From NCBI GenBank assembly GCA_032718475.1, contig JAUCBJ010007292.1, positions 1 through 39,544 on the forward strand: DNA of 39,544 nt. The letters run 5' to 3'. Below the pieces are notes generated by a model. That model was not told the origin of the DNA. It worked only from the letters and a program-made list of their open reading frames with translations, and did not search any database. Below, in pieces: positions 10,438-37,875 of this stretch. Position numbers and translations under genes: made by a program. The stretch comes from Nemertoderma westbladi (lineage: Eukaryota; Animalia; Xenacoelomorpha). Every line of letters starts with the position of its first letter. Within the stretch, counting starts at the first letter, position 1.

Positions 10438-11662
10438 TGTTCGCGCTTTCAGACTTTTGGCAGTTTAACCCACCAAATTAAGATGTCTTCTAGATATTAA
10501 ATCAGTTTTTAGTCTATGACAAGTATTTGATTCACTACACTAGTCGAAACCAATCCGTGCGCGACCATTCACCCGCTGGAGATTCCCGGGAGATTGGGTT
10601 CGACGGTTTAATTTTATTGCTATGTAAGCCTAATGTATTATTCGACTGACAGTATTATATAATCTCTGACAATATTATTCACCTTCGGGAATATTAACAG
10701 TTCCTTTAGGACGTGGCGCTTTATCTATATAAACAGAGTTATGACTTAAACTACTCACAACGATATGGCTTAATTATAATTCACATATATGGCGCATTCT
10801 TTAGGAATTGCTTCTTTAACAGACTCACTCATACACAATGCTGCACAATACTGCACACTAATCTGCCAATCTTCACTGATTTTAGTCACATATAAAAGGA
10901 ACACAGGCTGACTCATGTAGGGTCTATCAAATAACATTAGATTCACTTCAAACCACTTTAACATAAGTCACAATCGTTATTGGTAACCTTTCTCTCTTAC
11001 CTTCGGTATATCAAGAATATTGGGTTGCGGGGTTATTTATCGTTATTCCAAATATAATAATTCATCAACCATATTATGAAGAACTGACAGCAAATAACAG
11101 TATAAAACAACAACTGAACACTGATTGTTACGAGTTTGCAATGTTTCAGCAGTCAGGATGTATGATCAGTTAGCAGTAGTCTTTAGGTATGCCGATATGT
11201 CAGGTCAGTTAAAGGATATATGTCCTTATAATTAAACCTACTAGTGTAAAACTAAAAACTGAAAACACGGAGGTGCCAAAAGCCGGTTCTTAGGCTCTGG
11301 GCAAAAACATAACACTGAACTACTGAGTTTCTGTATATACCTCCAACACAGAGACAACAAACGCTCTGATTGGTCAACCTGAACAACGAGAGAACAGAGA
11401 AACAAAGAAATGTCGACGTGGCAATATCAGCTGCTAGCCGTCGTCATGGTAGCGACACTGTTTTCAAGAGTATCGAGCTTTTACGTCACGGAATTACGGA
11501 TTATGTCCTCTAAAGTACAAATACAGAAGAAATAGCTTTTATGTCCGCTAAAACACCAGTACAGCAAGGACACGGCCTTTTTATGCCTGGTAAACCAACT
11601 ACAGAGTACTTTACGGGAAAAATAAGGAAAAATAACCGGACAATTCAGCAAAAGCTTTTACA
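10438..11662 (-). repeat. 3' LTR of element A
   Basis: TGTTCGCGC...AAAAGCTTTTACA; matches 21042-22266 at offset 10604 with two substitutions (11042/21646 and 11411/22015). Confidence 0.97.
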
Positions 11663-11670
11663 CCGCTCCC
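11663..11670 (-). promoter_or_regulatory. Polypurine tract (GGGAGCGG) abutting the 3' LTR
   Basis: Minus strand reads ...TTTTCTGGGAGCGG|TGTAAAAGC; short G-rich tract at the expected position. Confidence 0.7.
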
Positions 11671-11740
11671 AGAAAATGGGATTTTCAGTCTATAAAATAT
11701 AAAAATCACAGTTTCTAAAACATAAAGATACTCTGAACAG

Positions 11741-13050: not shown

Positions 13051-13860
13051 TTATAATGAGTCCACATTTAGGCGAGCGGGCGTCGCTGCCTACCCCAATC
13101 AACCCCCGGACAGTACGAGATCCTCAGCGCCGATGTGTCGTCGCCGCTGTACTTTCGCCAACGACGTAGCCGCACAACGACAACGACAACCGGCACAAGT
13201 CACTCGACTGTCCGTCCCAAAGGCTTAGATGTACTTCAGGTTTTCCTTGGAGAGTTAGGTTACTTTCACGATTGCGACTAGCTACTGTAAACACACCTTA
13301 GTAGTAACATTCGCCTATAAACTCACAAATACCACACACACAACTTGTCACAAATTACACACACTCGGGTCACTTGTCCGTTAGTCAATGCCTTCCAGAA
13401 TGTCACTGTATTATTATGTATCCTTGGATACTAGTAGTGCGCTATTTATTCCCTATGCTATTCAATGGGACAAGCTTTCTATTGTTCTTTTAACTCAATT
13501 CTAATTCTAGCGTGGTTGTTGCTATGGTGACATTATGCAAAGCTAGCGGTAGAATTAGGGTGATTCCAATGCATACAGATCTGGGATGTTATTTAATAGT
13601 ATTCTTTAATAGTCAATGTTCTGTTTTATACATGACTTTATGAATTTTATCGGCTATTGACTATGTTTGGGAGACTTTCGCACACTCATATGCATAATAA
13701 GATAAATCTCCGCTCCCTTGATCTATTAATTAATGGAATTTTGGGAACTTTATAAATTGCGTAAAAATGGCAATTTATTAAATTCATTAAAAGGCATGAA
13801 TTTAAATTTATTCCCTGAAATTTTATTATTTGATAATTAAATGGACATATTTTGATTCTA

Positions 13861-14140
13861 GAACATGTCTAGGGACACAAGATCCTTAATTCTATGACAA
13901 TTGTCTTTTTTAAGAATATCGGTAAATGCTACGATATCTTAATTGACTAGAATTGTTGGAGGATCTGAATTTTACAGATTTTGATTTATTAGATTTGCAA
14001 ATATTAAATAATTAATATTTGAGATGGGCACCGATTTATTCCAGAACTTGTCTGGGGACGTTAACCACTGATTCTAGAATTTGTCTTTCAAGTATATCGG
14101 TGGGTGCCGCGATATCTTAATCGACTAGAATTACAGATGG
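13861..14140. repeat. Diverged direct duplication (about 180-bp period) containing an ATATCG-N10-CGATAT hairpin in each copy
   Basis: GAACATGTCTAGGGAC...ATATCGGTAAATGCTACGATATCTTAATTGACTAGAATT versus GAACTTGTCTGGGGAC...ATATCGGTGGGTGCCGCGATATCTTAATCGACTAGAATT. Confidence 0.75.
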
Positions 14141-14682
14141 TCAAAGGGTTTAACAGATTTATTTTGCGTTATACGCTACTGTTAAAGGGACATCACGCTA
14201 CTATATGTATTATTTAATATACGGTATGAGAGCAATATCGCACGAAGCAATGTCAGTGTGAAGAGGCAAGTCGTTTCCAAGGTCTACCCAGAGCTTGGTT
14301 TAGCCGAGACACGAGGATCTGAACTTTGCATTCCTAATACTCTGCCTACCAATAATACTTAAATATAGTAGTGGCTTTATTGTACTTTAATAAGTACGGA
14401 CATTTCATCTTACTGTAGTCACGTATTTATAATATGATACGGAGAGTAAGGAAAGAGGAAAAGAATTATTTCTTGCCGTCGCATTAAATATAATATATAC
14501 GTAATTAAGTAATAAACGCGAATATATATTGCACTAATCTACTAAATAATCGCTAAAATAACATTCTACTGAATAAAATTAAAGAAAACGATTATAATAA
14601 AATTACATAGTAATACATACATAAATATAAAAATAATAAAATAATATAAAATAATAGAGTCACACACCCACTCCATATGTTG

Positions 14683-17600
14683 TTACGTTATGGAGTCCCT
14701 AGATGTTTGAAGGATTAGGGAGGTGGTCGTGGGAAGAGAATCTTGCCTTCCACAGTTTCCGGAGAGTCCTCCATTCCCTTCCGATAAACACAAACGACCG
14801 ACTGGGTGATTGAGTCGCTGCATCCTGAATACAATTCCAGGTTTCCTCTTCGTCCTGGAATAGTGACGATAGAAACATCGCTCAAAGTATATGACGGCGT
14901 CACAAAGCCGATTCCAGGAGCTATAGTGGTCCGTCGCTCTCTGCAGGAGAGGTGAGAGTCCCTGCGAGACATCTGATGTTCCAGAGCTCCAATCGCTCTC
15001 TCTGATCTTCATGAAGGATCCACTCGCGGTGGGGAGGTTCAGATCCACGGCGTCGTCCCTGGCAACATGTAATACCGACAGATCTATCCCGGGTTCAAAT
15101 AACTCCGATCCACCCGTCCGGGTTTCAGGTTCGACTTTCTCCGCTCCCTTGGCTGGTCTAATCTCAGTCGGAGTAAGATGGGGAGGCCATTCATTCTCCT
15201 TACTCAGGAAGTCGGGTTCACCTAACCGGTCTATAGTATCTGTCAGTTCTTGAGGAGTTGCTCCTCTGGAAGCGATGTCTGTTGGATTAAACTTCTTGGG
15301 GCAATATCTCCATTGATCTACATTGGAGCTAAGATTGTCATTATCTGAGGAGTGTGGTGTTCCCTCAGTTGGGTCGTCTCCCTCACTAGTATCATCTTCC
15401 CATTCACTCACCTGGCAGACACGATCTTGAAGCAGTCTTTCCCTGAGCGTTCTACGGGAAGGTCCAGTAAGGTACCAACCTACTCTAGTTCTTACCGCAT
15501 AGGTCTGTAGTGGCTGCGGTTGAGCAGGCCGTTTCTCTAATGTCTCCAGCGCCTCATGCGCGTTTTGGCCGATGAGTATTTGCACTCCAGGATAATCAGT
15601 CTGGAATCGAGGTATGTTAAGATGTTGGATGCTCTCATCCTCGTCCCAATTATAAAGGTCTGCTTGAGTAGTAGCGAAGTTCTTTATAGCCACCATTTTC
15701 ACTGACCTTATACTGTATTCTCCTAGTTTATCCTGTGGGGTGGACAACTCACCTATATAATAGTCGGCAGCTACAGTAGAATTCCAAACCTGCATGATCC
15801 CTGACATGTTTAGCTTGGTTCGGAACTTGGGTTGTCCAGCAAAGATGACTTCGGCTAGTTCCCTATCGATGAATGTTCCTGTGCTACCGGAGTCCAGGAG
15901 GGCGTTCACTATATAGCTCTTCTGAGGTCCGTGGACCCGTAACTGGACTACAGGAAATTCTCGGATTCCTATATTGGAAGTTGGCGCTTTCCAAGATGGT
16001 TGTTGATCGGAAGTAGTTAAGGTAAGGTCGCTGTCTGTGTCTTTCTCATACACGAGTGCTCGATACACTGCGGTGGTGTTTATTAGGTAACAGGATTCGT
16101 TTTGGTCGGAGAACTCGTCCGTATAGAATCCTTCCATCTCAGATTGATCAGTGTCGTTCACATCACTGAATTGGACATGTAGTTCGGACTCACTTACCTG
16201 ACTCGGGCTGTTTCGTTCGAATTCCGTGTGCAACAAGATATGATGTTTTGCGCCGCACTTTGCACACCTTGCGTCGGAGTTACAGGTTCGCCGTTGGTGT
16301 CCTCGTCTGAGGCAATTATAACACAACCGCTTATCCCACATGACTTCACGTCTATCCTCGAGTGATTTCCTCAGGAATTTATCACACGCATTTAAACGGT
16401 GGGGCCCGTCGCACAGCACACATTTCGGCTTGATGTTACTTACTTTAACCTGTGCTATGTGGTGCACACTTGTTCTTTCCTCGGGCTTTCTTACCTGAAT
16501 TCCTTTAGGAGACGTAGGAGGGGTTTTTTGTACCGGTTCCCTTCTGTCATTGGGTCGAGACTTGGATTTACTTACCTGTTCTTTAGGCATTTTATTGACA
16601 TAATAAGGCCTGTCAGTGTCTTTCCCGCTGTCCTCTCCTTGAGAGGTTTGGCTTTCACCGTCGTCGGTATAACATACTGGTGTTACCCTTCTCCTAGAAA
16701 CGGGTTTCTCACTTACCTTGTTTTCCAATGTCTTCTCTCTGGACTGCCTTAGGAGCTGTAATTTCACTTCTCTATCTAAGAATGACATGAGATCAGTCAT
16801 GGTAGGGTCTCGTCGTTGTTGTTCCATCATATATAACACCTTCTTATCCCAGCGTGTACCTACTCCACCCTTGGGCAAAGCAGATGCTAAGGCTCTTACA
16901 ACCATAGAATTCTGGTATTCATGAGACTTACCTAGCCAATCTAATTGTCTACAGATCTCCTGAATCTCATCGGAAAACTCGATAATTCCGCTACTAATAA
17001 ACTTTCGGGGCGCTACTAACTTGGCATACAAGTACCCAGCGATATTATTCCTATTTCCATACCTGATGTTTAGTGTATCCCAAACTTGTCTTAATCCGTC
17101 TGGATGTCCAATAAACTTTAACGCCATTAACTTGGGAGATCCTTCCAAGCACTCGATGAGGTATCTAAGTTTTTCTCCATTAGATAGTACAGAGTTCTGT
17201 ATGTTATCTTTGTAATATTCATTAAAAGGTAACCATTTCATCTCATCTCCATTGAACTTGACGATCTCTCCAACCTTTACCGCTTGCCGGGCTTCGGTTC
17301 TAGCCATTTGACGCGTAAAACTTTCTTGGGCCGTTGTGCTATTTAATATCGAGTTATCGGTATATAAATTCCTCGGATTATGATCAGTTCCATAGGGAAT
17401 ATCATTACAAACAGGTCTATAATTACCCTTAATAGGGTTCACTATAGGAGTTTCTACTTCGCTAGCAGTATAGATGCGTGTAGGCTCCACACCTTGCGCA
17501 TGAGATACTTCAGACCTAACGGGTTGACACATTGTTACAGAGGGTGGTGGTATACCCTTTTGGGTGTTTACTAATTTATCGCGTTCAAGCGCGATACTTT

Positions 17601-18879
17601 GCTGCACTTCTTGCAACTCTAGCCTACTTTCCCTCACTGTTCCCTTTAAATGTTGGACAGTCCCTTCCAACTCTCGGACCTGTTGGGAGGAGCGTATCTG
17701 ATTCTCCTTCATCTCTCCAAGGAGAATATCCATCCCCCGCCGTCTCTCGTCTACCCAATCAACCGCCGAAACGGGATCCGCCAACGTCGTAGCGGGCGGA
17801 CGAGGGACAACGGGCGACAAATTATGAATAATTCGCTCGGGGTCCAGGACCTGAACTGTATCCGGGACAGTTCTACGGGGCACAGGTAGCTTAGTGCTAT
17901 GCAAAGGGAATTTAGAAGTAGTTTCAGGGAGCACAGGTGTATCTATCACCGAAGGGGTGATTTCAAGAACAGGCCTAATTATTTCAGGCTCATCTACTAT
18001 AGTAGGGAGTCTTTCGATTTTAATTATTTGGTCTGTGGGCTCTGTACTACCTAAGTTGGTGTTATTTAGTTGCCTTCTAACAGCTGGAGGCAAATCAGGC
18101 AATTTCTGACGGTGGAATGTTCTTTTACGTCTGCTTAGACGAGATCTATTTCCTTTGCCTTCAGTATCGGTGGTATCGCCTTCCTCAGAAGATGTATATC
18201 CCTGTCTTTTGGGAGTAGATCGATTCATCATCTGCATATTACTAGCTGTTAACTGTTTATTTATGCAGTCTTGATTCTCCTGAATGGTTTCCAATTCTAA
18301 TTGGGTGGTTTCTTCGGAAGCTCTCCGTTCTGCTTCTGCTACTGCCTCGACCGCTGCTACAGCCGCCTTTCTTTCTGCTTCGGCCGCTGCTGCTGCCACT
18401 TTTCTTTCGGCTTCTGCCTCTGCCTCTGCCGCTGCCACTTTTCTTTTGGCTTCTGCCTCTGCTTCTGCCGCTGCCACTTTTCTTTTGGCTTCTGCCTCTG
18501 CCTCTGCCGCTGCCACTGCCGCTTTTCTTTCTGCTTCTGCCGCTGCGACTGCTGCTGCCACTGCCGCTGTATTTCTGTCTTCTATACGTTTTTTCTTGAT
18601 TTGTTCTTCTTGGTCTCTAGCGATGCGGAGTTGTTCATCGAATTTAGCTTGGTTCGCCGCTAACCTATCCACATCAATTGCATCCAACACACGCTGGGCT
18701 CCTTCACTATTAGGGCTAAGCCCATCTAGTCTTCTCCGCAACTCTTCATCACCTACGAAACGCTGATAGTCTGACAGATAGATGTCAATGGCATCCCTCT
18801 TATGCGGTTTCTCTGCTGTCACTTCGCTCTCGGTTGTATCTAGTAGACTGTCTGACAGGTTCTGCTTTGCGTCAGACAT
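14683..18879 (-). CDS. gag: Gag-protease polyprotein (1398 aa) fused to an RNase H C-terminal remnant; RT and integrase absent
   Basis: DUF1759-like capsid region (KFNGDEMKWLPF...EKLRYLIECLEG); knuckles CVLCDGPHRLNAC, CYNCLRRGHQRRTC, CAKCGAKHHILLH; protease ALLDSGST...ILIGQ...RTRVGW; then QWRYCPKKFNPTDIASRG and YSSWNRL. No YxDD or DDE motif seen. Confidence 0.92.
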   Translation of the reverse strand: MSDAKQNLSDSLLDTTESEVTAEKPHKRDAIDIYLSDYQRFVGDEELRRRLDGLSPNSEGAQRVLDAIDVDRLAANQAKFDEQLRIARDQEEQIKKKRIEDRNTAAVAAAVAAAEAERKAAVAAAEAEAEAKRKVAAAEAEAEAKRKVAAAEAEAEAERKVAAAAAEAERKAAVAAVEAVAEAERRASEETTQLELETIQENQDCINKQLTASNMQMMNRSTPKRQGYTSSEEGDTTDTEGKGNRSRLSRRKRTFHRQKLPDLPPAVRRQLNNTNLGSTEPTDQIIKIERLPTIVDEPEIIRPVLEITPSVIDTPVLPETTSKFPLHSTKLPVPRRTVPDTVQVLDPERIIHNLSPVVPRPPATTLADPVSAVDWVDERRRGMDILLGEMKENQIRSSQQVRELEGTVQHLKGTVRESRLELQEVQQSIALERDKLVNTQKGIPPPSVTMCQPVRSEVSHAQGVEPTRIYTASEVETPIVNPIKGNYRPVCNDIPYGTDHNPRNLYTDNSILNSTTAQESFTRQMARTEARQAVKVGEIVKFNGDEMKWLPFNEYYKDNIQNSVLSNGEKLRYLIECLEGSPKLMALKFIGHPDGLRQVWDTLNIRYGNRNNIAGYLYAKLVAPRKFISSGIIEFSDEIQEICRQLDWLGKSHEYQNSMVVRALASALPKGGVGTRWDKKVLYMMEQQRRDPTMTDLMSFLDREVKLQLLRQSREKTLENKVSEKPVSRRRVTPVCYTDDGESQTSQGEDSGKDTDRPYYVNKMPKEQVSKSKSRPNDRREPVQKTPPTSPKGIQVRKPEERTSVHHIAQVKVSNIKPKCVLCDGPHRLNACDKFLRKSLEDRREVMWDKRLCYNCLRRGHQRRTCNSDARCAKCGAKHHILLHTEFERNSPSQVSESELHVQFSDVNDTDQSEMEGFYTDEFSDQNESCYLINTTAVYRALVYEKDTDSDLTLTTSDQQPSWKAPTSNIGIREFPVVQLRVHGPQKSYIVNALLDSGSTGTFIDRELAEVIFAGQPKFRTKLNMSGIMQVWNSTVAADYYIGELSTPQDKLGEYSIRSVKMVAIKNFATTQADLYNWDEDESIQHLNIPRFQTDYPGVQILIGQNAHEALETLEKRPAQPQPLQTYAVRTRVGWYLTGPSRRTLRERLLQDRVCQVSEWEDDTSEGDDPTEGTPHSSDNDNLSSNVDQWRYCPKKFNPTDIASRGATPQELTDTIDRLGEPDFLSKENEWPPHLTPTEIRPAKGAEKVEPETRTGGSELFEPGIDLSVLHVARDDAVDLNLPTASGSFMKIRESDWSSGTSDVSQGLSPLLQRATDHYSSWNRLCDAVIYFERCFYRHYSRTKRKPGIVFRMQRLNHPVGRLCLSEGNGGLSGNCGRQDSLPTTTSLILQTSRDSIT
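18340..18570 (-). repeat. In-frame 39-bp tandem repeats encoding Ala/Glu/Lys/Arg helical repeats (VAAAEAEAEAKRK) in the Gag N-terminus
   Basis: Visible in DNA (GCTTCTGCCTCTGCCTCTGCCGCTGCCACTTTTCTTTTG-like units) and in the translation. Confidence 0.9.
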
Positions 18880-20214
18880 GCTTATGTGTACAGTTGAATG
18901 TCTACTGCTGTATTACAGTCTGAGCAAGTCTAGTAACTCAGTATTAACTGCTAGCCTAGTAATTAATTACCGGTACTGCTACTCAGTGTAGCGTGATATA
19001 TATAATATATTAGAATACCGGTATGCTTATAGTATATATAACTATTATTACAGACTAGGTTTATCACAGAATACCGGTATAATTTTAGCACAAATATATA
19101 TAAAAATATAATAGGCCTATCGGAATACCGGTATACAGCTTACAGTTTGTAGTATATATAATTCTGAAATAGAATTAATTACACGTACCGGTATAATTTC
19201 AGCCTAGATTATAGAAATAAAGATAATAGGCCTATCGTAAATACCGGTATATCAATTATTTTAAAATAACTGAATTTCTGAACTTTAGGGTTACTTGGTT
19301 ACTTTAACTTACTTTATTACCGTTATTTAAGCAGTAATCCAACTGATATTGAGACCTAATGGTTGTATGGTAGGCCTACTATTTATAAATCGTTAGATTT
19401 GATTTATAATATATATATACCCGTTTTAATGGGTTTTGTCAATGTTGAAATAAATGTTATTATTTCTGGGGAGTAATCACTACACAAAGCGGTACGCTTT
19501 CAGTGAAGTGTTACTTATAGGACACTAAAACAAATAATTCTAATTTACCTAAGTTACTTAATACTACAAATTACGTACAATTCGGGTGAGATTACAATCT
19601 CTAAATAAACACAAAAATTTACAAAAAACACAAAATACGAATTTTTAGGGTAATTGTACAAGAAGTCTACAAACCAGCCTAACAAAGGGTTAGAAAACTG
19701 ATTATTACAGCGGACAGGGTACTACGGTATTTGAAATAATAAGTAGTAGTAAATACACTGCGTTGTCTAGATAGGAAAATACCACCGCCTGACGACCTAT
19801 AGCCGTATCGCTATAGGTTCTACGTTATGTATCACGGAGTGTTCCTACCTAGAAGTTAATAGAGCTAATCGAATGTGCCTATCAACCACTTTACAACACA
19901 GATATAATGTCTACAATAATTACTTCGGAAAGTACTGTACACTAAACCCTAAATTAGGTACGAGTACTTGTATAACAAATAATCAGTAGTTAAATATACT
20001 TGAACAGCTAAAAGAACCACGGCATCTGCTGGAGTGACCGATGCACAAAATCACCAGTCTTTACCTACGCCAAGCAGCCCGTGTAGTACCGAGGTTAATT
20101 TAACTATAGCGGTATGTATAACAAACACAATTACTGTAGGAACAAACTTGGGGACTTGAATGTTGCGAATAATCGCATAAACTCTGAATAATAAATATTA
20201 CGCTACGCGTACAA

Positions 20215-20790
20215 ACTACTCAAACAAAATACAGACAGAACACTGACAGACTACTATCAAGCCTAAACAAACTACGGTATATGCAGACTCCGAAATGATT
20301 AGGGAGTATGCGCTCTAACCCAGTAGTGCGACTTATTCTTTAGTTGGGGGATTACCTTACAGCGTTCGCTGCCCCTACTGCCTAATCGTACTTAATCGGA
20401 CAGATGATCTACACACGCGGCAATCCGTTCAGACCTAATAACAGCCAGACAACTATCCAGCCTACAAATTATCTAAATAAAATTATACGCTACCCGTACA
20501 GACTTACACAAACAAAGTACAGACTAAACAATGGCAGACCACTCTCAAGCCTAAATAAACCACAGGACATGCAGACTCCGAAATGATTAGGGAGTATGCG
20601 CTCTAACCCAGTAGTGCGACTTATTCTTTAGTTGGGGGATTACCTTACAGCGTTCGCTGCCCCTACTGCCTAATCGTACTTAATCGGACAGATGATCTAC
20701 ACACACTGCAATTCGTTCGGACTTAACAGCAATCAGACAAAAGCTCGGCCTACAAATCGTCTGTACAATCTGATCAGGCTTACACGCCTT
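20215..20790. repeat. Tandem duplication (288-bp period) in the 5' leader of element A
   Basis: 20281-20416 is identical to 20569-20704; the flanking parts of the units are diverged. Confidence 0.92.
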
Positions 20791-21029
20791 CTGTTCAATA
20801 CTGGCCTACAAATAAATAAAACTTGACAGAAATAAGTAAACCATATAAAGGTATAAGGGGTGATCAATCCCTAATCCCCTAAACAGCCTACCGGTATATA
20901 ATTATCAAAATCGAATAATACTGCTGTACCTGTACTGCTGTAGGTACCGGTCCGGGTGGTTAGGTAGTCAGGCCTACTGGGTACCGGTTGCCGGTACTTC
21001 AGCTTTATTGCCTACTGCAATACAGAAGC

Positions 21030-21041
21030 TATATCCTTTAA
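21030..21041 (-). promoter_or_regulatory. Non-tRNA primer-binding site of element A (TTAAAGGATATA)
   Basis: Immediately follows the 5' LTR terminal CA; no TGG; perfect 12-nt complement of LTR segment 21813-21824. Confidence 0.8.
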
Positions 21042-21812
21042 TGTTCGCGCTTTCAGACTTTTGGCAGTTTAACCCACCAAATTAAGATGTCTTCTAGATA
21101 TTAAATCAGTTTTTAGTCTATGACAAGTATTTGATTCACTACACTAGTCGAAACCAATCCGTGCGCGACCATTCACCCGCTGGAGATTCCCGGGAGATTG
21201 GGTTCGACGGTTTAATTTTATTGCTATGTAAGCCTAATGTATTATTCGACTGACAGTATTATATAATCTCTGACAATATTATTCACCTTCGGGAATATTA
21301 ACAGTTCCTTTAGGACGTGGCGCTTTATCTATATAAACAGAGTTATGACTTAAACTACTCACAACGATATGGCTTAATTATAATTCACATATATGGCGCA
21401 TTCTTTAGGAATTGCTTCTTTAACAGACTCACTCATACACAATGCTGCACAATACTGCACACTAATCTGCCAATCTTCACTGATTTTAGTCACATATAAA
21501 AGGAACACAGGCTGACTCATGTAGGGTCTATCAAATAACATTAGATTCACTTCAAACCACTTTAACATAAGTCACAATCGTTATTGGTAACCTTTCTCTC
21601 TTACCTTCGGTATATCAAGAATATTGGGTTGCGGGGTTATTTATCATTATTCCAAATATAATAATTCATCAACCATATTATGAAGAACTGACAGCAAATA
21701 ACAGTATAAAACAACAACTGAACACTGATTGTTACGAGTTTGCAATGTTTCAGCAGTCAGGATGTATGATCAGTTAGCAGTAGTCTTTAGGTATGCCGAT
21801 ATGTCAGGTCAG

Positions 21813-21824
21813 TTAAAGGATATA
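21813..21824 (-). promoter_or_regulatory. Putative self-primer segment in LTR A (minus strand TATATCCTTTAA; also at 11209-11220)
   Basis: Exact reverse complement of the PBS-position sequence. Confidence 0.75.
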
Positions 21825-21860
21825 TGTCCTTATAATTAAACCTACTAGTGTAAAACTAAA

Positions 21861-22057
21861 AACTGAAAACACGGAGGTGCCAAAAGCCGGTTCTTAGGCT
21901 CTGGGCAAAAACATAACACTGAACTACTGAGTTTCTGTATATACCTCCAACACAGAGACAACAAACGCTCTGATTGGTCAACCTGAACAACGAGAGAACA
22001 GAGAAACAAAGAAACGTCGACGTGGCAATATCAGCTGCTAGCCGTCGTCATGGTAGC
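21861..22057 (-). promoter_or_regulatory. Candidate U3 promoter elements: Inr-like TTCAGTT (21861-21867), CCAAT box (21970-21977), X-box-like GTCGTCATGGTAGC (22044-22057)
   Basis: Similar motifs occur in the same order in the diverged LTR B (TTCAGAC about 26246-26252, CTGATTGG 26383-26390, GTTTCCATGCCAGC 26428-26441). Function is inferred. Confidence 0.4.
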
Positions 22058-22266
22058 GACACTGTTTTCAAGAGTATCGAGCTTTTACGTCACGGAATTA
22101 CGGATTATGTCCTCTAAAGTACAAATACAGAAGAAATAGCTTTTATGTCCGCTAAAACACCAGTACAGCAAGGACACGGCCTTTTTATGCCTGGTAAACC
22201 AACTACAGAGTACTTTACGGGAAAAATAAGGAAAAATAACCGGACAATTCAGCAAAAGCTTTTACA

Positions 22267-24991
22267 GTGCTACATATCGGATGTGCTACATATCGGATGT
22301 GCTACATATCGGATGTGCTACATATCGGATGTGCTACATATCGGATGTGCTACGCTACATATCGGATGTGCTACATATAGGATGTGCTACATATCGGATG
22401 TGCTACATATCGGATGTGCTACATATCGGATGTGCTACATATCGGATGTGCTACGCTACATATCGGATGTGCTACATATCGGTTGTGCTACATATTGGAT
22501 GTGCTACGATACATATCGGATGTGCTACATATCGGATGTGCTACATATCGGATGTGCTACATATCGGATGTGCTACGCTACATATCGGATGTGCTACATA
22601 TAGGATGTGCTACATATCGGATGTGCTACATATCGGATGTGCTACATATTGGATGTGCTACGATACATATCGGATGTGCTACATATCGGATGTGCTACAT
22701 ATCGGATGTGCTACATATCGGATGTGCTACATATCGGATGTGCTACATATCGGATGTGCTACATATAGGATGTGCTACATATCGGATGTGCTACATATCG
22801 GATGTGCTACATATCGGATGTGCCACGCTACATATCGGATGTGCTACATATCGGATGTGCTACATATCGGATGTGCTACATATCGGATGTGCTACATATT
22901 GGATGTTCTACGATACATATCGGATGTGCTACATATCGGATGTGCTACATATTGGATGTGCTACATATCGGATGTGCTACATATCGGATGTGCTACATAT
23001 TGGATGTGCTACGAAACATATCGGATGTGCTACGCTACATATCGGATGTGCTACGATACATATCGGATGTGCTACGCTACATATCGGATGTGCTACATAT
23101 CGGATGTGCTACGCTACATATCGGATGTGCTACATATCGGTTGTGCTACGCTACATATCGGATGTGCTACGCTACATATCGGATGTGCTACGCTACATAT
23201 CGGATGTGCTACGCTACATATCGGATGTGCTACATATAGGATGTGCTACATATCGGATGTGCTACTTATCGGATGTGCTACATATCGGATGTGCTACATC
23301 GCGGATGTGCTACATATCGGATGTGCTACATATCGGATGTGCTACATATCGGATGTGCTACATATTGGATGTGCTACGATACATATCGGATGTGCTACAT
23401 ATCGGATGTGCTACATATTGGATGTGCTACATATCGGATGTGCTACGCTACATATCGGATGTGCTACATATCGGATGTGCTACATATCGGATGTGCTACG
23501 CTACATATCGGATGTGCTACATATCGGATGTGCTACATATCGGATGTGCTACATATCGGATGTGCTACATATCGGATGTGCTACATATCGGATGTGCTAC
23601 ATATTGGATGTGCTACGATACATATCGGATGTGCTACATATCGGATGTGCTACATATTGGATGTGCTACATATCGGATGTGCTACATATCGGATGTGCTA
23701 CATATTGGATGTGCTACGCTACATATCGGATGTGCTACGCTACATATCGGATGTGCTACGCTACATATCGGATGTGCTACATATCGGATGTGCTACATAT
23801 CGGATGTGCTACATATCGGATGTGCTACATATCGGATGTGCTACATATCGGATGTTCTACATATTGGATGTGCTACGATACATATCGGATGTGCTACATA
23901 TCGGATGTGCTACATATTGGATGTGCTACATATCGGATGTGCTACATATCGGATGTGCTACATATTGGATGTGCTACGCTACATATCAGATGTGCTACGC
24001 TACATATCGGATGTGCTACGCTACATATCGGATGTGCTACGCTACATATCGGATGTGCTACGCTACATATCGGATGTGCTACGCTACATATCGGATGTGC
24101 TACATATCGGTTGTGCTACGCTACATATCGGATGTGCTACGCTACATATCGGATGTGCTACATATCGGATGTGCTACGCTACATATCGGATGTGCTACAT
24201 ATCGGATGTGCTACATATCGGATGTGCTACGCTACATATCGGATGTGCTACATATCGGATGTGCTACATATTGGATGTGCTACATATCGGATGTGCTACA
24301 TATCGGATGTGCTACATATTGGATGTGCTACGCTACATATCAGATGTGCTACGCTACATATCGGATGTGCTACGCTACATATCGGATGTGCTACGCTACA
24401 TATCGGATGTGCTACGCTACATATCGGATGTGCTACGCTACATATCGGATGTGCTACATATCGGTTGTGCTACGCTACATATCGGATGTGCTACGCTACA
24501 TATCGGATGTGCTACATATCGGATGTGCTACGCTACATATCGGATGTGCTACATATCGGATGTGCTACATATCGGATGTGCTACGCTACATATCGGATGT
24601 GCTACATATCGGATGTGCTACATATCGGATGTGCTACATATCGGATGTGCTACATATCGGATGTGCTACATATCGGATGTGCTACGCTACATATCGGATG
24701 TGCTACATATCGGATGTGCTACATATCGGATGTGCTACATATCGGATGTGCTACATATCGGATGTGCTACATATTGGATGTGCTACGATACATATCGGAT
24801 GTGCTACATATCGAATGTGCTACGATACATATTGGATGTGCTACATATCGGATGTGCTACATATCGGATGTGCTACATATCGGATGTGCTACGCTACATA
24901 TCGGATGTGCCACGCTACATATCGGATGTGCTACGCTACATATCGGATGTGCTACGCTACATATCGGATGCGCTATGCTACATATCTGATG
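22267..24991. repeat. Continuation of the 16/21-bp satellite array
   Basis: Same monomer and orientation, resuming at the TSD; degenerates at the right end (...GCGCTATGCTACATATCTGATG). Confidence 0.99.
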
Positions 24992-25230
24992 ATTCTCCAG
25001 ACCCAACAACAGTCCGACAACAGTCCGGCCTACAATTATCTGAACAATCTGAGCAGACTTACACGCCTTCAGCTCAATATTAACTTACTAGGAAATAAAA
25101 CTGACAGAAATAGACCTAAGTAAAATCCCAATAAAACCAGGCGTCCCCGATTTAATATCGAGACCTACCGGTATACAATAATCAAAATCGAATAATACTA
25201 ATGTACTTATACTGGAAGTACCAGTTAGGA

Positions 25231-25382
25231 CAGTTGGGCCTACAGACCTACAGCAGTACCGGTTCAGGCAGTTAGGCCTACGGACCTACAGCAGTACTGG
25301 TTCTGGCAGTTGGGCCTACGGACCTACAGCAGTACCGATTCTGGCAGTTGGGCCTACGGACCTACAGCAGTACCGGTTCAGG
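25231..25382. repeat. Four tandem 38-bp repeats in the leader of element B
   Basis: CAGTTGGGCCTACGGACCTACAGCAGTACCGGTTCWGG x4. Confidence 0.93.
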
Positions 25383-25433
25383 TTTACCGGTCGACCGGTA
25401 CTTTCAACTTTATTGCTCACTGCAATAAAGACA

Positions 25434-25444
25434 ATAACTGTTAT
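25434..25444 (-). promoter_or_regulatory. Non-tRNA PBS of element B (ATAACAGTTAT), complementary to LTR segment 26197-26207
   Basis: Abuts the LTR end; 11-nt perfect complement lies at the position homologous to 21813-21824. Confidence 0.75.
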
Positions 25445-26634
25445 TGTACGCGCTTTTGAAGACCTTTAGCAGTTTAACCTGCTAAAATTTATATGTCTTT
25501 TGGTTTATAAATAGACTTTTAGTAAATGACGAGTATTTAATACCAATAAACACAACATTAGCCGAAGCCAGCCTAGTGCGCGTCCATTCACCCGCTGGAT
25601 ATACCCGGGAGACTGGATTCGGAGGGCTTAGATTGTTATTGCAGTGTAAGCTTACTGTATTATTCGATTGATCGTTAATAAATAATTCCTGACTAATATT
25701 ATTCACTTTCGGGAAATATTAACAGTTCCTTTAGGACGTGGCGCTCTATCTAGGTAAACAGAGCTATGACTTATACTAAACACAACGGTAAGTCGGTAAG
25801 GCTTATGATTCACGTATGAGGCGCATTCTTTAGGAAATGCTTAGTTATCAGCCACAATCATGCACACTACCGGTACCACACAATACTGCACAATAATCTG
25901 CCGACCGTCAATGAATTTTATCATATATAAAGAGAACAGCAATTGACTCATGTAGTGTCTATCGAATAGCATTAAACTCACTACAAACCACGATGATATA
26001 AGTCGCAATCGCTATATGTAACCTGTCTCTCTAACCTGTAGTGTATCAAGAAAATTGGGAAATTTGGGTTCTTTATAGATGTTCTCCAAATAATAATATT
26101 CAACCAACTGATACAAATAATAACAGTAAATAGCATTAAGACGGTAGGTTAAGATATGATATGATTGTTTGGTTAGTTGATAATTATGGCGAATTGATAA
26201 CAGTTATACGTTCTATAATCTAAGCCTACTAATGTTTCTTCTAAAGTCTGAAACGAATTGACTCTAGAGCCGGTGTTCTTGGCCTAGATAGAAACAACAC
26301 AACAGTATCAAGAAAAAACAGTAAGACTGAACACTCCTAGCACGATCTGTAGAAAATCTCCACATCGACAGTAAAAATCACCCTGATTGGCTGTTAAGCT
26401 AAACAAAGAACCATGTGTCCAATGGCCGTTTCCATGCCAGCAACCAGCTGTTAGATGTCGTAATCTGAATCATCAAGGCTACGCTGTGCTAGAGTATTTG
26501 ACGCATTGCGGGTTTTATGCCTTACCATGTCCGCCAAAGCACACATATAGAAGAATGACTTTTATGTCCGTTAAAACACCTATAACGGTACTTTGCGGGC
26601 GAGGGGACTGATTATATCCGCAAAAGCTTTTACA
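25445..26634 (-). repeat. 5' LTR of element B (1190 bp, TGTACGCGC...AAAAGCTTTTACA)
   Basis: Homologous end to end with LTR A, with conserved termini and a more diverged U3-side half. Confidence 0.92.
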
Positions 26635-28480
26635 TATAGAGTATTTAACCAGAGCTTTAAGAGTTACAGGTGATCTAATATACATAAAATCGTCAAGTTG
26701 CGCAACACCATAGGCGGACATTGCAGCTCTTAACAAAGTCGATTGATCTAATCTAAGAACACAATCTAGTAGAAAATGCGATTCGGATTCAGGCTCACCA
26801 CATAAACAGGCACAATCATCAATGTCACCATATCTGCTTATCATAAGAGCCAGGTTGCCCTGACCGAGCACCAAACCGAGAATGAAGGATTCACGAGCTC
26901 TACCACAGGCTAGATTTATGGGTGTAAGTGACGGCAGCTGGTTTGTTTTGATCAGAGAATCGTTCAAATTGAGAGACTTTTTCCATACATCCTGTGTATA
27001 CATTTTCATTTGTCCTTGAGTGTAGTGCAATTGCCGTGAGTCTATATTCTCGATTTCAATTAAACGACTAGATCTCTCATTGTTTAACCACGCAATATAG
27101 GTTTTCACATCGTTCAAGTGTGAGGCAAAACTGTTTTTTAAGGACAGTTCGGAAATCGCTTTCAACGACATTGTAATGTCTTCCGATCTCGACAATGATT
27201 TCAACAGATATTTGGTCCTGATTACCTGACAAAATATTTCGGGAGGCGGAATGCCACATATCACTTCTAGTTTATTTCTGTGAGGGTTATATAAAGCACC
27301 AACAGATTGTTTTAGCATTATGCCCCATAGATCATTAAGAATTTTTATGGCTTCCCGATTCATCCATACTGGTGATGCATACAATAGTCTTGGTAGTAGT
27401 ACCGACTGTATTAGCTTTGTTGCTGCTTGTAGGTTTATTCCGCTGGATGGCTTCACAAATTTACTTATGAGATCCCAAATACTCCAGAATTTTTGCAATA
27501 GTGACCTGATATGAAATTCAAAGGACATATTAGAGTCAAAAATGACTCCAAGAATTTTGGTCTCATGAATATAGCTACATACACTATTCCCCATGACTAT
27601 TTTAGGTAAGGCATCATAGTCAATGTGAGGCATGTTTATTATCACAATGTCTGTCTTTTCTCCATTAGTTTTTAGTCGCCATTTTGTACACCATGTACTA
27701 AATTGGCTACAGTCTGTTTGAACTTGACTTAGGCAGACTAACAGGGCCTCCATTGATTGATCACATCCTCTATAATTAGAGCTATCATCTGCGTATTTGT
27801 ATTGTGACAACAACTCTACAATGTAGAAACAGAAAAAGTCCATTGAAAGGACACGTCCTTGAGCTAACCCGATTTCAACATCTAGACAAAACGTTTCTGA
27901 TTTGTAGTCATTAACAACTATTTCTATATTACGGTGTTTTAATATGGTTGTGATGCATTTCAGAATTTTCCCCCTAATACCGGCATTATATAATTTATAG
28001 AGGAGTCCGTTTATCCATATAGAATCAAAAGCCTTCTCTACATCTATAGTAGTTAAAACACCTGATCTACCATTTGATGTATCTTCTTTTATCATACTTG
28101 TTAATTTATATAGGTAGTCTACTGTGCTCGAGTTAGGTTTGCAGAATTGTGATTTGTCGCAGTGTGGTCCAACTAAATCTTGAATTCTATGTTTGATCAA
28201 CCGTTCAAAAAGTTTACCAAAATATGACGATATAGAGATAGGTCGGTATGAACCTGGGAATTTGTAATCTCTTTTACCTGCTTTTTTGATAAACTTATTC
28301 ATATTCAATGGCCATGGCCATATATTACTCTCAAATGTTAGATTAAACAAATGTAAAGTGAGTGACCGCGCCCAAAAGCCCATAGATGTTATAAACTTTG
28401 GATGTATTCCATCACAATCCATTGACTTACCACTACATTTAATTTGTTTTATTTCATTGTGAGGGGTACCATTAATCAAC
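26635..28480 (-). mobile_element. 5'-truncated non-LTR retrotransposon (I/Jockey-group-like) ORF2: RT plus C-terminal CCHC finger, interrupted by LTR B
   Basis: YRPISISSYFGKLFERLI, DVEKAFDSIW, GLAQGRVLS, YADD, KILGVIFDSNMSF, CLCGEPESESHFLLDC. The last 40 or so residues of the tracked 654-aa ORF are read-through into LTR B. Confidence 0.92.
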
Positions 28481-28645
28481 CTGTCGTTCTGTCGTTCTGT
28501 CGCGTTTTTTTTCAGTATTTTATTTTAAACGTTAATAACTCGGCCAATCCTTGATGAAATCTATCCAAACTTGGTACACATGTTGTTTGGCAAAAGTTTG
28601 AAAATTTTCCAAGTAGAATTTGCGTGGGGCCTTCGTGCAGCATCA
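28481..28645 (+). mobile_element. Possible non-autonomous Helentron/DINE-like fragment
   Basis: CTGTCGTT short repeats followed by ATAACTC...TGAAA...AAACTTGGTACACATG, resembling the core of such elements; recognised from memory only. Confidence 0.3.
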
Positions 28646-29341
28646 GTGTAACTGTTATTGCAGTTATAATAAATTTATTTATCCAAATTTAAAATGCGTT
28701 AAATTATTATTACTGTAGGATAAATCAGCTGGGTTTCTGACAAATTTTGCAATACATTGTGGCTGTCTGCATTGTGTACTGTCAGGCTGTACTCAATCCC
28801 TGAATCGAGAATCCTGCAATCAGTCAATACTGCAAATATTGGTCAGCCGGTACCATACACTGCAGACATGCCATATCATGTAATCTAATTAAACATGGCC
28901 ATGGCAACCCTTGCGGTGATTATAGTTTAGGCCTAATAGCCCAGTACCGGCACCGGTAATAATAATATAATAGTTTAGATAGTCACCGCTAATCATTCAG
29001 TCATTGGCACGGTACACCGTATTGCTGTACTGCCGTTGTAGTGCGCACCGTAGGTACCACCCTACTACCGGTACCGGCTGACCGGTGGCAACAAGCACTT
29101 CAGCACACTTGCACAGCACTGCAGCAACAGCACTACCGGCGATACACAGGTTGGAATTTATGTAGAGTTTGCTCAACAGTACAGATATAAAATAGTTATC
29201 TAAATTATATATATTACTATTGACAAGTATTGAAATATATACCGTTATTCGTGTTATCAGTATTTGCAACATCTGACATTGAAGAGGTGAGAGAAGATGA
29301 ATACCGGCACTCAACAAAACCAACGCTTATCACAGGTCGGT

Positions 29342-29625
29342 ATGGTTACCTCGAAACCGGCGCGACTGTCCACTCGAATACAACTTCAAAACACAAACGC
29401 CAACAATAAACTGAAAGCGAATCGAACGTTTTCAGAAGAATCTGTCATTGGGACGAAGAAAAGGAAGCCGAAACCACGGGATGGACCACAGCTAAGATTG
29501 AATGCTCCCATTGTCAGAGTTCCTGGACCGAAATTGAAACACCAATTGCCGATGGGCTTGATCTCTCAAACCAAAACTTTCTCTGCGGGGTTTGCGTGGC
29601 AGTAAAGATTGAAAGTCTGGAAGCT
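29342..29625 (+). pseudogene. Frameshifted fragment with a PHD-like zinc finger, probably a LINE (CR1/L2-type) ORF1 N-terminus
   Basis: An untracked frame reads ...KIECSHCQSSW...NFLCGVCVAVKIESLEA (CxxC...W...FxCxxC then a coiled-coil start). Confidence 0.4.
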
Positions 29626-29979
29626 GGCATCCCTAGGTATTATTATTATAAAGAGCGTCAGCCTGCGTTTAATAAATATATTTTAATACAAAACAGGTCG
29701 AACGCAAAGAGGCTTATAATGAAGACGAGTACTGCATTGATTATATTCCTATAAACCACCTGGCTTTGCATATTGAACGTGCGTTTGGAAATAAGTTCGT
29801 GCTACCCTTCCGTGGGTGGTAGATGTCGCGGTTATGTATTGGTGGGTGGGGGGGGGGGGGGGGGGGTGCAGATTAAAAGGGGTGAACACGTACTGTCCCC
29901 CTTTCTTTGATTAATTGGTGGTGTGGGTTAATCTCTCATAACCTGATTTTGTGATACAGTCGCACAATTTTAATTTGTA

Positions 29980-30945
29980 TCTCATAACTGGGCCTCGTGC
30001 TGCGCGAAGGCCCCACGAACGTGTATCCTATTACGTATCTCAACAAGTTTGTCTACATGTTGTTGCCAACTATTTGCTTCCATTAGTAACCGGTATCCGG
30101 GTGTGTTTGCTTGCCTACATAACTCAAAAACATGTGTAAATGGGAGTTCACTATTCTGACTTTTCAATCATTTTACATATAAATCTTTTCCTAGCACGTG
30201 AAATTAAGTACTTGAGGGGTGGTGCTCCTACTTCTACCAGAGGGGTGGTGCTTCTACTTCTACAAAACAAATATCCGTGGGGGTTTGAGCCCTAACACCA
30301 AGAATACCTTTTTTTCAATTAGACTGGTGTCACTCGTTAATATCTGATCCATATACTAGGCCAGATAATACTGCAGCATCAATTACGCGTTTTTTAATTG
30401 CAAAAGGTAGACTTGTGTTCGTGCTCGTAAAAATGATAAATTTATTGACAGTTTCTTCGCACTTAAGCCGGTGGTGGTAAGTGTACTCTGGACCTTCCCA
30501 TCTGCACAAAAAGGTACTCCCAAATATACATACACAGCACAATAATTTACAACCAAATTATTAATAGTCAGCGGCGCCTCATCACCTAGACTAGGGTTAA
30601 TGACAAAAAATTTCGTTTTTTTTTCGTTAATTTTCATTCCAGATGAATTACAAAATGTAACCAGAGTTTTTAGTTTCAGCAGTGCATTAGTGCGGCAACT
30701 AGAAAAAATCACAGTATCGTCCATCAAAAGTAATAAATGGATTGCCCCCAAGAAACCGTCATCCACAACTTCGGATCATCTTAGCTAATCTATTAATGTA
30801 AATGCAAAAGAGCACCACGCTAGATGGGGCACCTTGCCGGACACCAATAACAGACAAAAACATAGCAGTTTTAAGAATGTGCTTCGTACATTTATAAACA
30901 GCTTGCACCGCTAATAACATTGTTTTTCCGCATCCACGTTTTTGT
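29980..30945 (-). mobile_element. Decayed non-LTR retrotransposon RT fragment with an LMDD catalytic motif
   Basis: Across frameshifts: RGCGKTMLLAVQAVY...GVRQGAPSSVVLFCIYINRL / DDGFLGAIHLLLLMDDTVIF...GMKINEKKTKFFVIN...YVYLGVPF / AAVLSGLVYGS. Confidence 0.88.
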
Positions 30946-30958
30946 ACTTGAGTCTGGC

Positions 30959-31610
30959 GCTACATCGGATGTGCTACATCGGATGCGCTACATCGGATGT
31001 GCTACATCGGATGTGCTACATCGGATGTGCTACATCGGATGTGCTACATCGGATGTGCTACATCGGATGTGCTACATCGGATGTGCTACATCGGATGTGC
31101 TACATACCGGATGTGCTACATCGGATGTGCTACATATCGGATGTGCTACATCGGATGTGCTACATCGGATGTGCTACATCGGATGTGCTACATCGGATGT
31201 GCTACATCGGATGTGCTACATCGGATGTGCTACATATCGGATGTGCTACATCGGATGTGCTACATCGGATGTGCTACATCGGATGTGCTACATCGGATGT
31301 GCTACATCGGATGTGCTACATCGGATGTGCTACATCGGATGTGCTACATATCGGATGTGCTACATCGGATGTGCTACATCGGATGTGCTACATCGGATGT
31401 GCTACATCGGATGTGCTACATCGGATGTGCTACATCGGATGTGCTACATCGGATGTGCTACATCGGATGTGCTACATCGGATGTGCTACATCGGATGTGC
31501 TACATCGGATGTGCTACATATCGGATGTGCTACATATCGGATGTGCTACATCGGATGTGCTACATCGGATGTGCTACATCGGAGGTGCTACATATCGGAT
31601 GTGCTACATA
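30959..31610. repeat. Short satellite array, 14-bp monomer GCTACATCGGATGT with occasional 16-bp units
   Basis: Directly visible; differs from the main monomer by lacking one AT dinucleotide. Confidence 0.98.
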
Positions 31611-36583: not shown

Positions 36584-37709
36584 GATGTGTAGTACAATTC
36601 GGTCCCGGACAATTCCGGACAATTCGGTCCCAAAACACTAAATAAATGGGACCGAATTGTCCGGGACCGAATGGTTCGTTGTTCGGGACCGCATTGTCCT
36701 AGGACCGCATTGTCCTAGGACCGCATTGTCCTAGGACCTCATTGTCCTAGGACCGCATTGTCCTAGGACCTCATTGTCCTAGGACCGAATTGTCCGGTAA
36801 TTGATTAGTGTTTTTTTTACTAGCTAGAATATCTTTAAACTTTCTAATTACTGTATTTTTTTTTATTTTTGTTAATAGTAAGTGTTCGATTCGAGAACAT
36901 TATTAAATATTATTTATTAAGGTGTAGCTAGTGTCTTTTTTACTAGCTAGCGTTTTCTTGAAATTATTATAAAAGAATTTGTAAAATCATTGATATTTCA
37001 GAATTAGGCCTAATTAGCTAAACTGTTGCTGATTATATTAAATACCAACAATATTGATGATATTATAACAGTCCCTGAATGAGATCCAGCTATTATCTAG
37101 GATAATAATTTAGGCTTCTTAACCAACCAACAACACATACAGTATACTTACGCAATATATAAAAAAAATCAGTTTTAAACATTTTAAATAGATACAACTA
37201 GCTAGTAAATAATTCACAAGCTCCATAAAAACACCATAGGTACCATAACTAATGTTAACAAAAAAAAGTAAATTTTTTTATTTTCAATAAAATACTAGCT
37301 AGGAAAAAAACACTAGCTACCATATAATTATATATATTAAGGTTCTAGAACATTCACCATTATATAGTACCAATTAAATTTGGTCCCGGGCAATTCGGTC
37401 CCGGACAAATCGGTCCCGGCCAATTCGGTCCCGGACAAGTCGGTCCCGGACAATTCGGTCCCATTAATATGCATGTTTTGGGACCGAATTGACCTAGTCA
37501 GTATCCAGACAATTCGGCCCCGGACAATTCGGTCCCAGACAATTCGGTCCCATTAATATGCATGTTTTGGGACCGAATTGACCTAGTCAGTATCCAGACA
37601 ATTCGGCCCCGGACAATTCGGTCCCAGACAATTCGGTCCCAAAACACAAAATAAATGGGATTGAATTGTTCGGGACCAAATTTTCCGGGACCGAATTGTC
37701 CTGCTTCCC
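36584..37709. mobile_element. Non-autonomous Mutator-like/foldback element with repeat-rich long inverted termini
   Basis: Arrays of ACAATTCGGTCCC/GGACCGAATTGTCC at both ends; termini GATGTGTAGTACAATTC and (reverse complement) GGGAAGCAGGACAATTC align; near-identical 9-bp flanks TCCAAAATA / TTCAAAATA. Confidence 0.75.
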
Positions 37710-37875
37710 TTCAAAATATTGATAAAAGTATTGTTCAACACAATTTGCAACAATTATTTTAGAAATTGGGATTGAAAGAGAACAACGATTTACCAGTTTA
37801 AAATTAAATTGTTGTCGTTATTTCTAACACCGATAGTAGTAGAGTCTTGGGCGGCTCGGTGACAGTTGGACAGTC

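Follow-up and report, generated by a model that had tools for sequence, protein, structure and literature searches.

We analysed a 39,544-nucleotide (nt) stretch of DNA from Nemertoderma westbladi (GenBank assembly GCA_032718475.1, contig JAUCBJ010007292.1), referred to below as the window. It is eukaryotic, repeat-rich DNA that contains two related retroelements with long terminal repeats (LTRs), here called A and B; all features relevant to this analysis lie on the minus strand. Judging from the sequence, both elements likely prime minus-strand DNA synthesis with RNA derived from their own LTRs, in the manner of Tf1, instead of with a tRNA. Directly established are the anatomy of the elements, the complementarity of an LTR segment to the leader from position +1, the register of the paired sites, four double changes between A and B, and the same signature in distant families of BEL/Pao elements. 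From there on, we infer every step.

Primer-binding sites and their complements in the LTRs

The LTRs, the positions of the primer-binding sites (PBS) and the candidate self-primers are as follows.

21042..22266, minus strand: 5' LTR of element A, 1225 nt
10438..11662, minus strand: 3' LTR of element A, 1225 nt
25445..26634, minus strand: 5' LTR of element B, 1190 nt, TG...CA, inserted at the 3' end of the reverse transcriptase (RT) frame of a long interspersed nuclear element (LINE)
21030..21041, minus strand: PBS position of A, 12 nt, directly after the LTR end
21813..21824, minus strand: candidate self-primer of A, exact complement of the PBS
25434..25444, minus strand: PBS position of B, 11 nt, directly after the terminal CA (25446-25445)
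26197..26207, minus strand: candidate self-primer of B, exact complement of the PBS

The candidate primers are situated upstream of the PBS, within the LTR, at a distance of about 760-780 nt. The site of A recurs in the 3' LTR at 11220-11209 (minus strand). The original prediction, made from the letters of this stretch, held that B differs from A at the PBS position and carries a perfect complement of its own at 26197-26207; both points and the coordinates proved exact. The comparison with shuffled LTRs that it called for was also favourable. With pairing at offset 0, a complement as long was observed in none of 5000 dinucleotide shuffles for A and in 4 of 5000 for B; with offsets 0-3 allowed, the same shuffles gave 4 and 16 of 5000. 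Among 2131 leader positions of A, position +1 ranks best for LTR complementarity. In B, the complement at position +1 is 11 nt, and two other real helices, at leader positions 17 and 247, do as well or better. Cross pairing at offsets 0-3 is short: the PBS of A finds only 5 nt in the LTR of B, and the PBS of B only 8 nt in the LTR of A.

The caveat that the B site is nearly palindromic is correct for B, where the palindrome reaches 17 nt across the LTR end (hairpin 25447-25431). However, at its centre the LTR site carries the complement of the PBS base and not the same base, and the A site is not palindromic. No tRNA gene was found in the window. A spliced primer was considered for A and B and rejected, as the best junction match is 9 nt in A, with none in B, versus contiguous matches of 12 and 11 nt.

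Register and covariation

The two LTR sites had been predicted to be homologous, and they are in register both in a local MAFFT alignment and in a pairwise global alignment; one global MAFFT alignment placed them out of register. The 50 nt upstream of the B site match the A LTR best at this register, although narrowly (25/50 versus 24/50 for the next best). The landmarks beside both sites are present as described: TATAAT at 21831 and 26214, CCTACTA at 21841 and 26225, and TTCAG at 21867-21863 (A) and 26252-26248 (B), the A of which is 40 and 42 nt from the respective sites.

PBS sequences of A and B differ at 5 of 12 positions. When the 12 pairs are compared in register, 7 are unchanged, 4 are changed on both sides, all of them Watson-Crick, and one terminal pair is broken in B. 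The combinatorial chance estimate for the double changes is 1.2e-4, and three of the four are transversions on both sides, without a G-U intermediate. The covariation between A and B is thus real and homologous. The original prediction took it as the signature of a functional duplex. Homology and compensatory change were upheld, but selection for stable pairing is not the only possible source of covariation: matched changes would arise mechanically, and with no mismatched intermediate, were the plus-strand PBS copied by RT from the primer. The double transversions without a G-U intermediate fit such copying, by which the covariation was probably produced in part. Covariation that arose in this way would still point to priming.

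The same signature in distant families

Relatives were collected with a BEL/Pao profile (the best 78 of 559 confirmed metagenome loci, in 57 families). The LTR end was fixed by divergence of the LTR copies in 6 of the 57 families, and 49 of the 57, having no fixable end, were left out. All six families have a 10-13-nt complement at offsets 2-5 (0-2 of 400 shuffles); five of these complements span a predicted GT..AG junction and one is contiguous. Two more, L012 and L045, also match, but their LTR ends were set after inspection, and the first trial end of L012 gave no match. L060 has TGG at +2 besides its 10-nt junction match.

A later test set consisted of 12 loci from genome contigs (L079-L090), of which 8 with flanks were examined; 4 have full LTR pairs. 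A complement of the 10-13-nt class (at most 2 of 300 shuffles) was found in three of these four: 11 nt across a junction in L079 and L080 (0/300 and 2/300), and 11 contiguous nt in L082 (0/300). The fourth, L083, lacks a complement (154/300) and carries TGG at +5. In the combined sets, 9 of 10 anchored families have their own 10-13-nt complement at offsets 1-5, in 7 cases across a predicted splice junction. L079 and L080 are 78% identical and provide two further double changes. One primer sequence is common to four families, which cross-match; the remaining types match their own LTR only, and at least seven differing PBS sequences do so.

The PBS is complementary solely to the exon-exon joint of a predicted LTR intron in L006, L012, L021, L026, L045, L060, L062, L079 and L080, and to a contiguous segment in L008 and L082. 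In L064 the acceptor AG has been lost from the 5' LTR copy. Self-complementary PBS candidates came from a scan without fixed LTR ends in L009, L019, L055, L063 and L073, and were not counted. The presence of BEL/Pao elements in prokaryote genome records (L079-L090) most likely reflects host contamination; L083 is a complete LTR-pair element within a Wolbachia chromosome record. The exact LTR motifs of A and B had no match in metagenome, genome or viral contigs, their only copies being the three LTRs of the window. Of 38 candidates from a BEL/Pao protein scan of viral contigs, none was confirmed.

Predicted masking of the primer and accessory helices

A and B were folded separately with RNAfold from the putative start site. 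Since folding of 1-kb RNAs is unreliable, the following structures are predictions.

21371..21424, minus strand: internal decoy segment of A, predicted to mask the primer
25799..25861, minus strand: internal decoy segment of B, predicted to mask the primer
21239..21251, minus strand: LTR arm of the LTR-leader helix of A, partner at about 20921-20909
25657..25669, minus strand: LTR arm of the 13-bp LTR-leader helix of B, partner 25198-25186, conserved in A
25636..25646, minus strand: LTR arm of an 11-bp helix of B with leader positions +17..+27 (25428-25418), adjoining the PBS

In both predicted folds the primer region pairs with a homologous LTR segment, the decoy, about 400 nt downstream. Among 22 register-matched pairs, the registers being read from the two folds, 14 are unchanged, 1 is changed on one side, 4 are changed on both sides and 3 are broken. 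The co-folded primer and decoy arms have energies of -22.4 and -15.2 kcal/mol when matched and -6.6 and -11.9 kcal/mol when swapped. As a partner of the primer, the decoy comes out top among 194 LTR windows in A and in second place among 188 in B. The changes in the decoy suggest selection on the masking helix, because copying of the primer into the PBS cannot rewrite the decoy. A conserved hairpin branches from the middle of the decoy segment in A and B.

Other helices are predicted as well. The LTR-leader helix of 12-13 bp is maintained despite a repeat insertion in the B leader. The 11-bp helix next to the PBS occurs in B only and competes with a leader hairpin. Common to A and B are a helix at the U5 end, with one double change, and a U5 hairpin in which one pair changed on both sides and two pairs on one side. 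Of 238 confident pairs of A, 40 coincide exactly with pairs of B, a count for which no null was computed. Rfam gave one weak unrelated match (E 0.84) in 10000-30000, and no known RNA family or ribozyme. The most conserved block of the A and B LTRs (21460-21150 and 25920-25570, 81-89% identical in pieces) contains two copies of CCTAAAG and several predicted hairpins, and has no Rfam match.

Promoter-like, splice-like and polyadenylation signals

26326..26390, minus strand: predicted promoter-like motifs of B, CCAAT box 26390-26383 and initiator-like GTTCAGT 26332-26326

A CCAAT box is conserved in A and B about 150-180 nt upstream of the primer site. About 50 nt further on comes GTTCAGT, which precedes the site by 97 nt in A and 122 nt in B and is better conserved than TTCAG. 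The TTCAG near the sites is an unproven candidate initiator, and TTTCAG would also fit a 3' splice acceptor. Since CCAAT and GTTCAGT are conserved upstream of the site, the RNA of A and B, unlike that of Tf1, probably does not begin with the primer but carries it internally. A conserved predicted helix arm lies 10-18 nt upstream of the primer site.

In A and B, as in 7 of 8 relatives, an AATAAA or ATTAAA hexamer occurs downstream of the primer site but none upstream. These hexamers fit a cut in the 5' copy followed by strand transfer. Donor-like sites are conserved between primer and decoy in both LTRs (21604 and 26035, minus strand), and acceptor-like sites in both leaders (20806 and 25089, minus strand). 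Splicing from the former to the latter would take out the decoy together with the PBS.

Proposed mechanism and alternative explanations

Under self-priming, transcription would start about 100-120 nt upstream of the primer site, and in the default fold the LTR-internal helix would mask the primer. Inside the particle the primer would be released for pairing with the PBS through chaperoning by Gag, through splicing or by means of a separate LTR-derived RNA. The 3'-OH would come from a cut immediately 3' of the primer, which RNase H makes in Tf1 and, by analogy, would make here. Plus-strand synthesis would then copy the primer back into the PBS, so that primer mutations would be carried over and the pair would turn over quickly. 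In tRNA-primed elements, likewise, the PBS end of plus-strand strong-stop DNA is copied from the primer.

Several observations weigh against self-priming. The claim of a functional duplex gained from the distant families, which repeat the pattern with five other primer types and one TGG-type negative case, but folding gives the primer:PBS duplex a probability near 0 in both A and B. The energy penalty for imposing it is 10.0 kcal/mol in A and 17.7 kcal/mol in B, falling to 5.0 and 14.3 kcal/mol for an RNA that starts at the primer; the duplex would close a loop of 750-770 nt, and in B 9 of its 11 pairs are A-U. The covariation within this genome comes from two subfamilies, A and B. The scan of relatives without fixed LTR ends performed no better than nulls (22 of 45 families versus 17 and 21), and its acceptor pattern missed known cases too. 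Finally, the relatives support the BEL/Pao group and not the lineage of A, because A is a long unplaced branch.

The helix could be structural or regulatory, serving in 5'-3' cyclisation with the 3' LTR copy or in a packaging or translation switch, with priming achieved by other means. The two mutually exclusive, co-varying partners of the primer site and its recurrence in the 3' LTR (11220-11209) fit this. Nevertheless we regard it as unlikely, as the helix of every family measures 10-13 nt and begins at +1 to +6 from the LTR end. Moreover, it replaces the TGG site and does not accompany it, the TGG-type element L083 lacks it, and no other primer site is visible. Even less probable is priming by a host RNA (an internal tRNA fragment, a half-tRNA or a small RNA), the LTR site being a mimic that masks the PBS. 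Half-tRNA priming does exist in Copia lineages, according to the accessible text of PMC6317226. Here, however, 5 of the 12 PBS positions are unlike in A and B, and at least seven PBS sequences match no LTR but their own, each of which would call for a separate host RNA and a matching mimic.

We give about the same low credence to priming by a natural 3' end of an element RNA that stops at the primer site, whether that of the 3' LTR or that of a short LTR transcript, with no RNase H cut. Such an end would supply the 3'-OH directly, a short or spliced transcript would be free of the masking segment, and donor-like sites do occur between primer and decoy in both elements (21604, 26035). Against it, the canonical poly(A) hexamers are downstream of the site and never upstream in A, B and 7 of 8 relatives. 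An accidental match or mutational artefact is very improbable and already largely refuted. The A/T content of the B site (9 of 11 bases), the 17-nt palindrome across the B LTR end and the single out-of-register global alignment could be cited in its favour, but the match was equalled in only 4 of 5000 shuffles, is in register with the non-palindromic A site, and has its counterpart in 9 of 10 anchored families.

Self-priming from the LTR thus remains the reading we favour. A bolder version of it, which we put forward as speculation more doubtful than not, is that a large part of BEL/Pao gave up tRNA priming for an internal self-primer, and that the lineage of A and B gates priming by a three-way RNA switch. 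An anti-primer helix would co-evolve with primer and PBS, and the mask would be removed by splicing or cleavage, an intron-less counterpart of the splice-built primers. The PBS would be rewritten in each cycle, giving each subfamily a private primer code.

Elements A and B and their surroundings

14683..18879, minus strand: open reading frame (ORF) of A, 1398 amino acids counted from the first Met
11663..11670, minus strand: short polypurine tract (PPT) of A, adjoining the 3' LTR
24990..25433, minus strand: leader remnant of B, homologous to the A leader, about 450 nt, ending at a satellite array
26635..28524, minus strand: non-LTR (LINE) RT frame interrupted by B, with endonuclease-RT LINEs as relatives

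The LTRs of A differ at 2 of 1225 sites, and the element is flanked by a 5-nt target duplication, GTGCT, within a 16-nt satellite. The near-identity of the LTRs and the target duplication indicate recent movement with the present PBS. The ORF encodes, in this order, a BEL/Pao Gag (DUF1759), a cysteine-rich knuckle, a protease and a short remnant corresponding to residues about 1180-1280 of the BEL/Pao profile. The Gag matches Pfam DUF1759 with E 7.5e-12, and A matches the BEL/Pao profile with E 9e-79. All 19 protein database matches of the ORF are BEL/Pao polyproteins, and PF05380 is present in each of the 19. A search of the interior of A yielded no RT or integrase match, and therefore A appears to be a young, non-autonomous BEL/Pao-related LTR copy, for which RT, RNase H and integrase would have to come in trans. 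The interior 3' of the ORF (11663-14682, about 3 kb) has no BEL/Pao protein match. Two small open frames occur here, 11611-12006 and 12721-13041; the second has no Pfam match.

Element A has the direct LTRs with TG...CA ends, the target duplication and the PPT of BEL/Pao elements, as well as Gag and protease of the BEL/Pao type. On the other hand, no 18-nt PBS for tRNA-Arg or tRNA-Gly was found, there being no TGG within the first 10 leader nt of A or B, and in a quick Gag-protease tree A forms a very long branch without placement among the other BEL/Pao families. We classify A and B as BEL/Pao-related by homology of Gag and protease; because of the absence of a tRNA-type PBS, they do not appear to be typical members.

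The sequence identifies B as a sister of A, reduced to the 5' LTR and the leader. It has one LTR, and its assignment to BEL/Pao is based on the 75% identity of the A and B LTRs in a pairwise global alignment and on homology of its leader to that of A. The leader remnant contains about 3.5 copies of a 38-nt repeat. The adjoining RT frame was ruled out as the pol gene of B, its relatives being endonuclease-RT LINEs. The 16-nt satellite in which A resides (with 21-nt variants) occupies 1-10430 and 22267-24985, and an array of a 14-nt variant is found at about 30960-31610. In the region 36600-37710, repeats of the GGACCGAATTG type, 15-16 nt long, form inverted arrays that may represent a non-autonomous DNA transposon.

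Comparison with known systems

The International Committee on Taxonomy of Viruses (ICTV) describes BEL/Pao elements as having an 18-nt PBS for tRNA-Arg or tRNA-Gly and their replication as poorly understood (PMC8742986). A and B resemble the BEL/Pao elements of this description (Belpaoviridae, Semotivirus) in LTRs of up to 1.2 kb, TG...CA ends, PPT, DUF1759 Gag, protease and metazoan-type relatives (PMC8742986). They differ in lacking the TGG site, and A in lacking RT and integrase. As far as the accessible text of the BEL/Pao surveys goes, primers or tRNAs are unmentioned in PMC3118150 and PMC6238403, only PCR primers occur in PMC554778, and the PBS is treated generically in PMC8220671. We found no report of self-priming in BEL/Pao in the literature searched, which covers few subscription papers or Repbase reports and no supplements. 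An internally encoded tRNA-like primer is said to have been proposed for the nematode element Cer7.

Self-priming has been reported for Tf1/sushi and Tcn1 and predicted for the plant TAR/Houba/Osr-1 elements of Ty1/copia, in the accessible portions of PMC6317226, PMC4600332 and PMC6934838. The portion available of PMC3601003 describes hairpin priming in chromoviruses only, and as an ancestral idea. The criterion used for prediction, as excerpted from PMC6317226, is a stretch of at least 10 nt, beginning 0-5 nt past the 5' LTR, whose complement occurs in the LTR. Both A and B have such a stretch, as do the TAR/Houba/Osr-1 and Tcn1 lineages to which the criterion was applied. These lineages belong to other superfamilies, and the accessible text on them does not mention a masking helix or a spliced primer.

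The closest parallel is Tf1, in which the first 11 nt of the RNA pair with the PBS and RNase H cuts after base 11, as given in the consulted part of PMC7175516. The same part states that in tRNA-primed elements plus-strand strong-stop DNA ends in the PBS sequence. Duplexes flanking the PBS of Tf1 form a 'pretzel', according to the accessible text of bioRxiv 10.1101/2022.12.06.519325, and the helices predicted beside the PBS of A and B are similar to these. As in Tf1/Tf2 of Schizosaccharomyces pombe, Tj1 and Tf1/sushi, insofar as the parts available of PMC7175516, PMC4600332 and bioRxiv 10.1101/2022.12.06.519325 describe them, A and B have no tRNA site, and have a PBS on the 11-nt scale complementary to their own LTR, with flanking helices that in A and B are predicted. 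Unlike Tf1/sushi, which are Ty3/gypsy chromoviruses, A has Gag and protease of the BEL/Pao type. Whereas the primer of Tf1 is the first 11 nt of its RNA, that of A and B probably lies 100-120 nt inside the transcript, and 750-770 nt separate it from the PBS. According to the predicted folds it would be masked by another co-varying part of the LTR, the third besides primer and PBS. Many relatives have a primer that runs across a predicted splice junction.

In our model A and B stand apart from the known self-primers by the masking helix and by a primer that probably lies inside the RNA. The A/B pair constitutes a natural swap experiment, in which the cut and the start of priming have exact predicted positions. 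If the model is correct, annotation based on the PBS would miss such elements, and tRNA-free priming arose in a third superfamily by a different layout, with a primer that is internal, sometimes built by splicing and, in A and B, masked.
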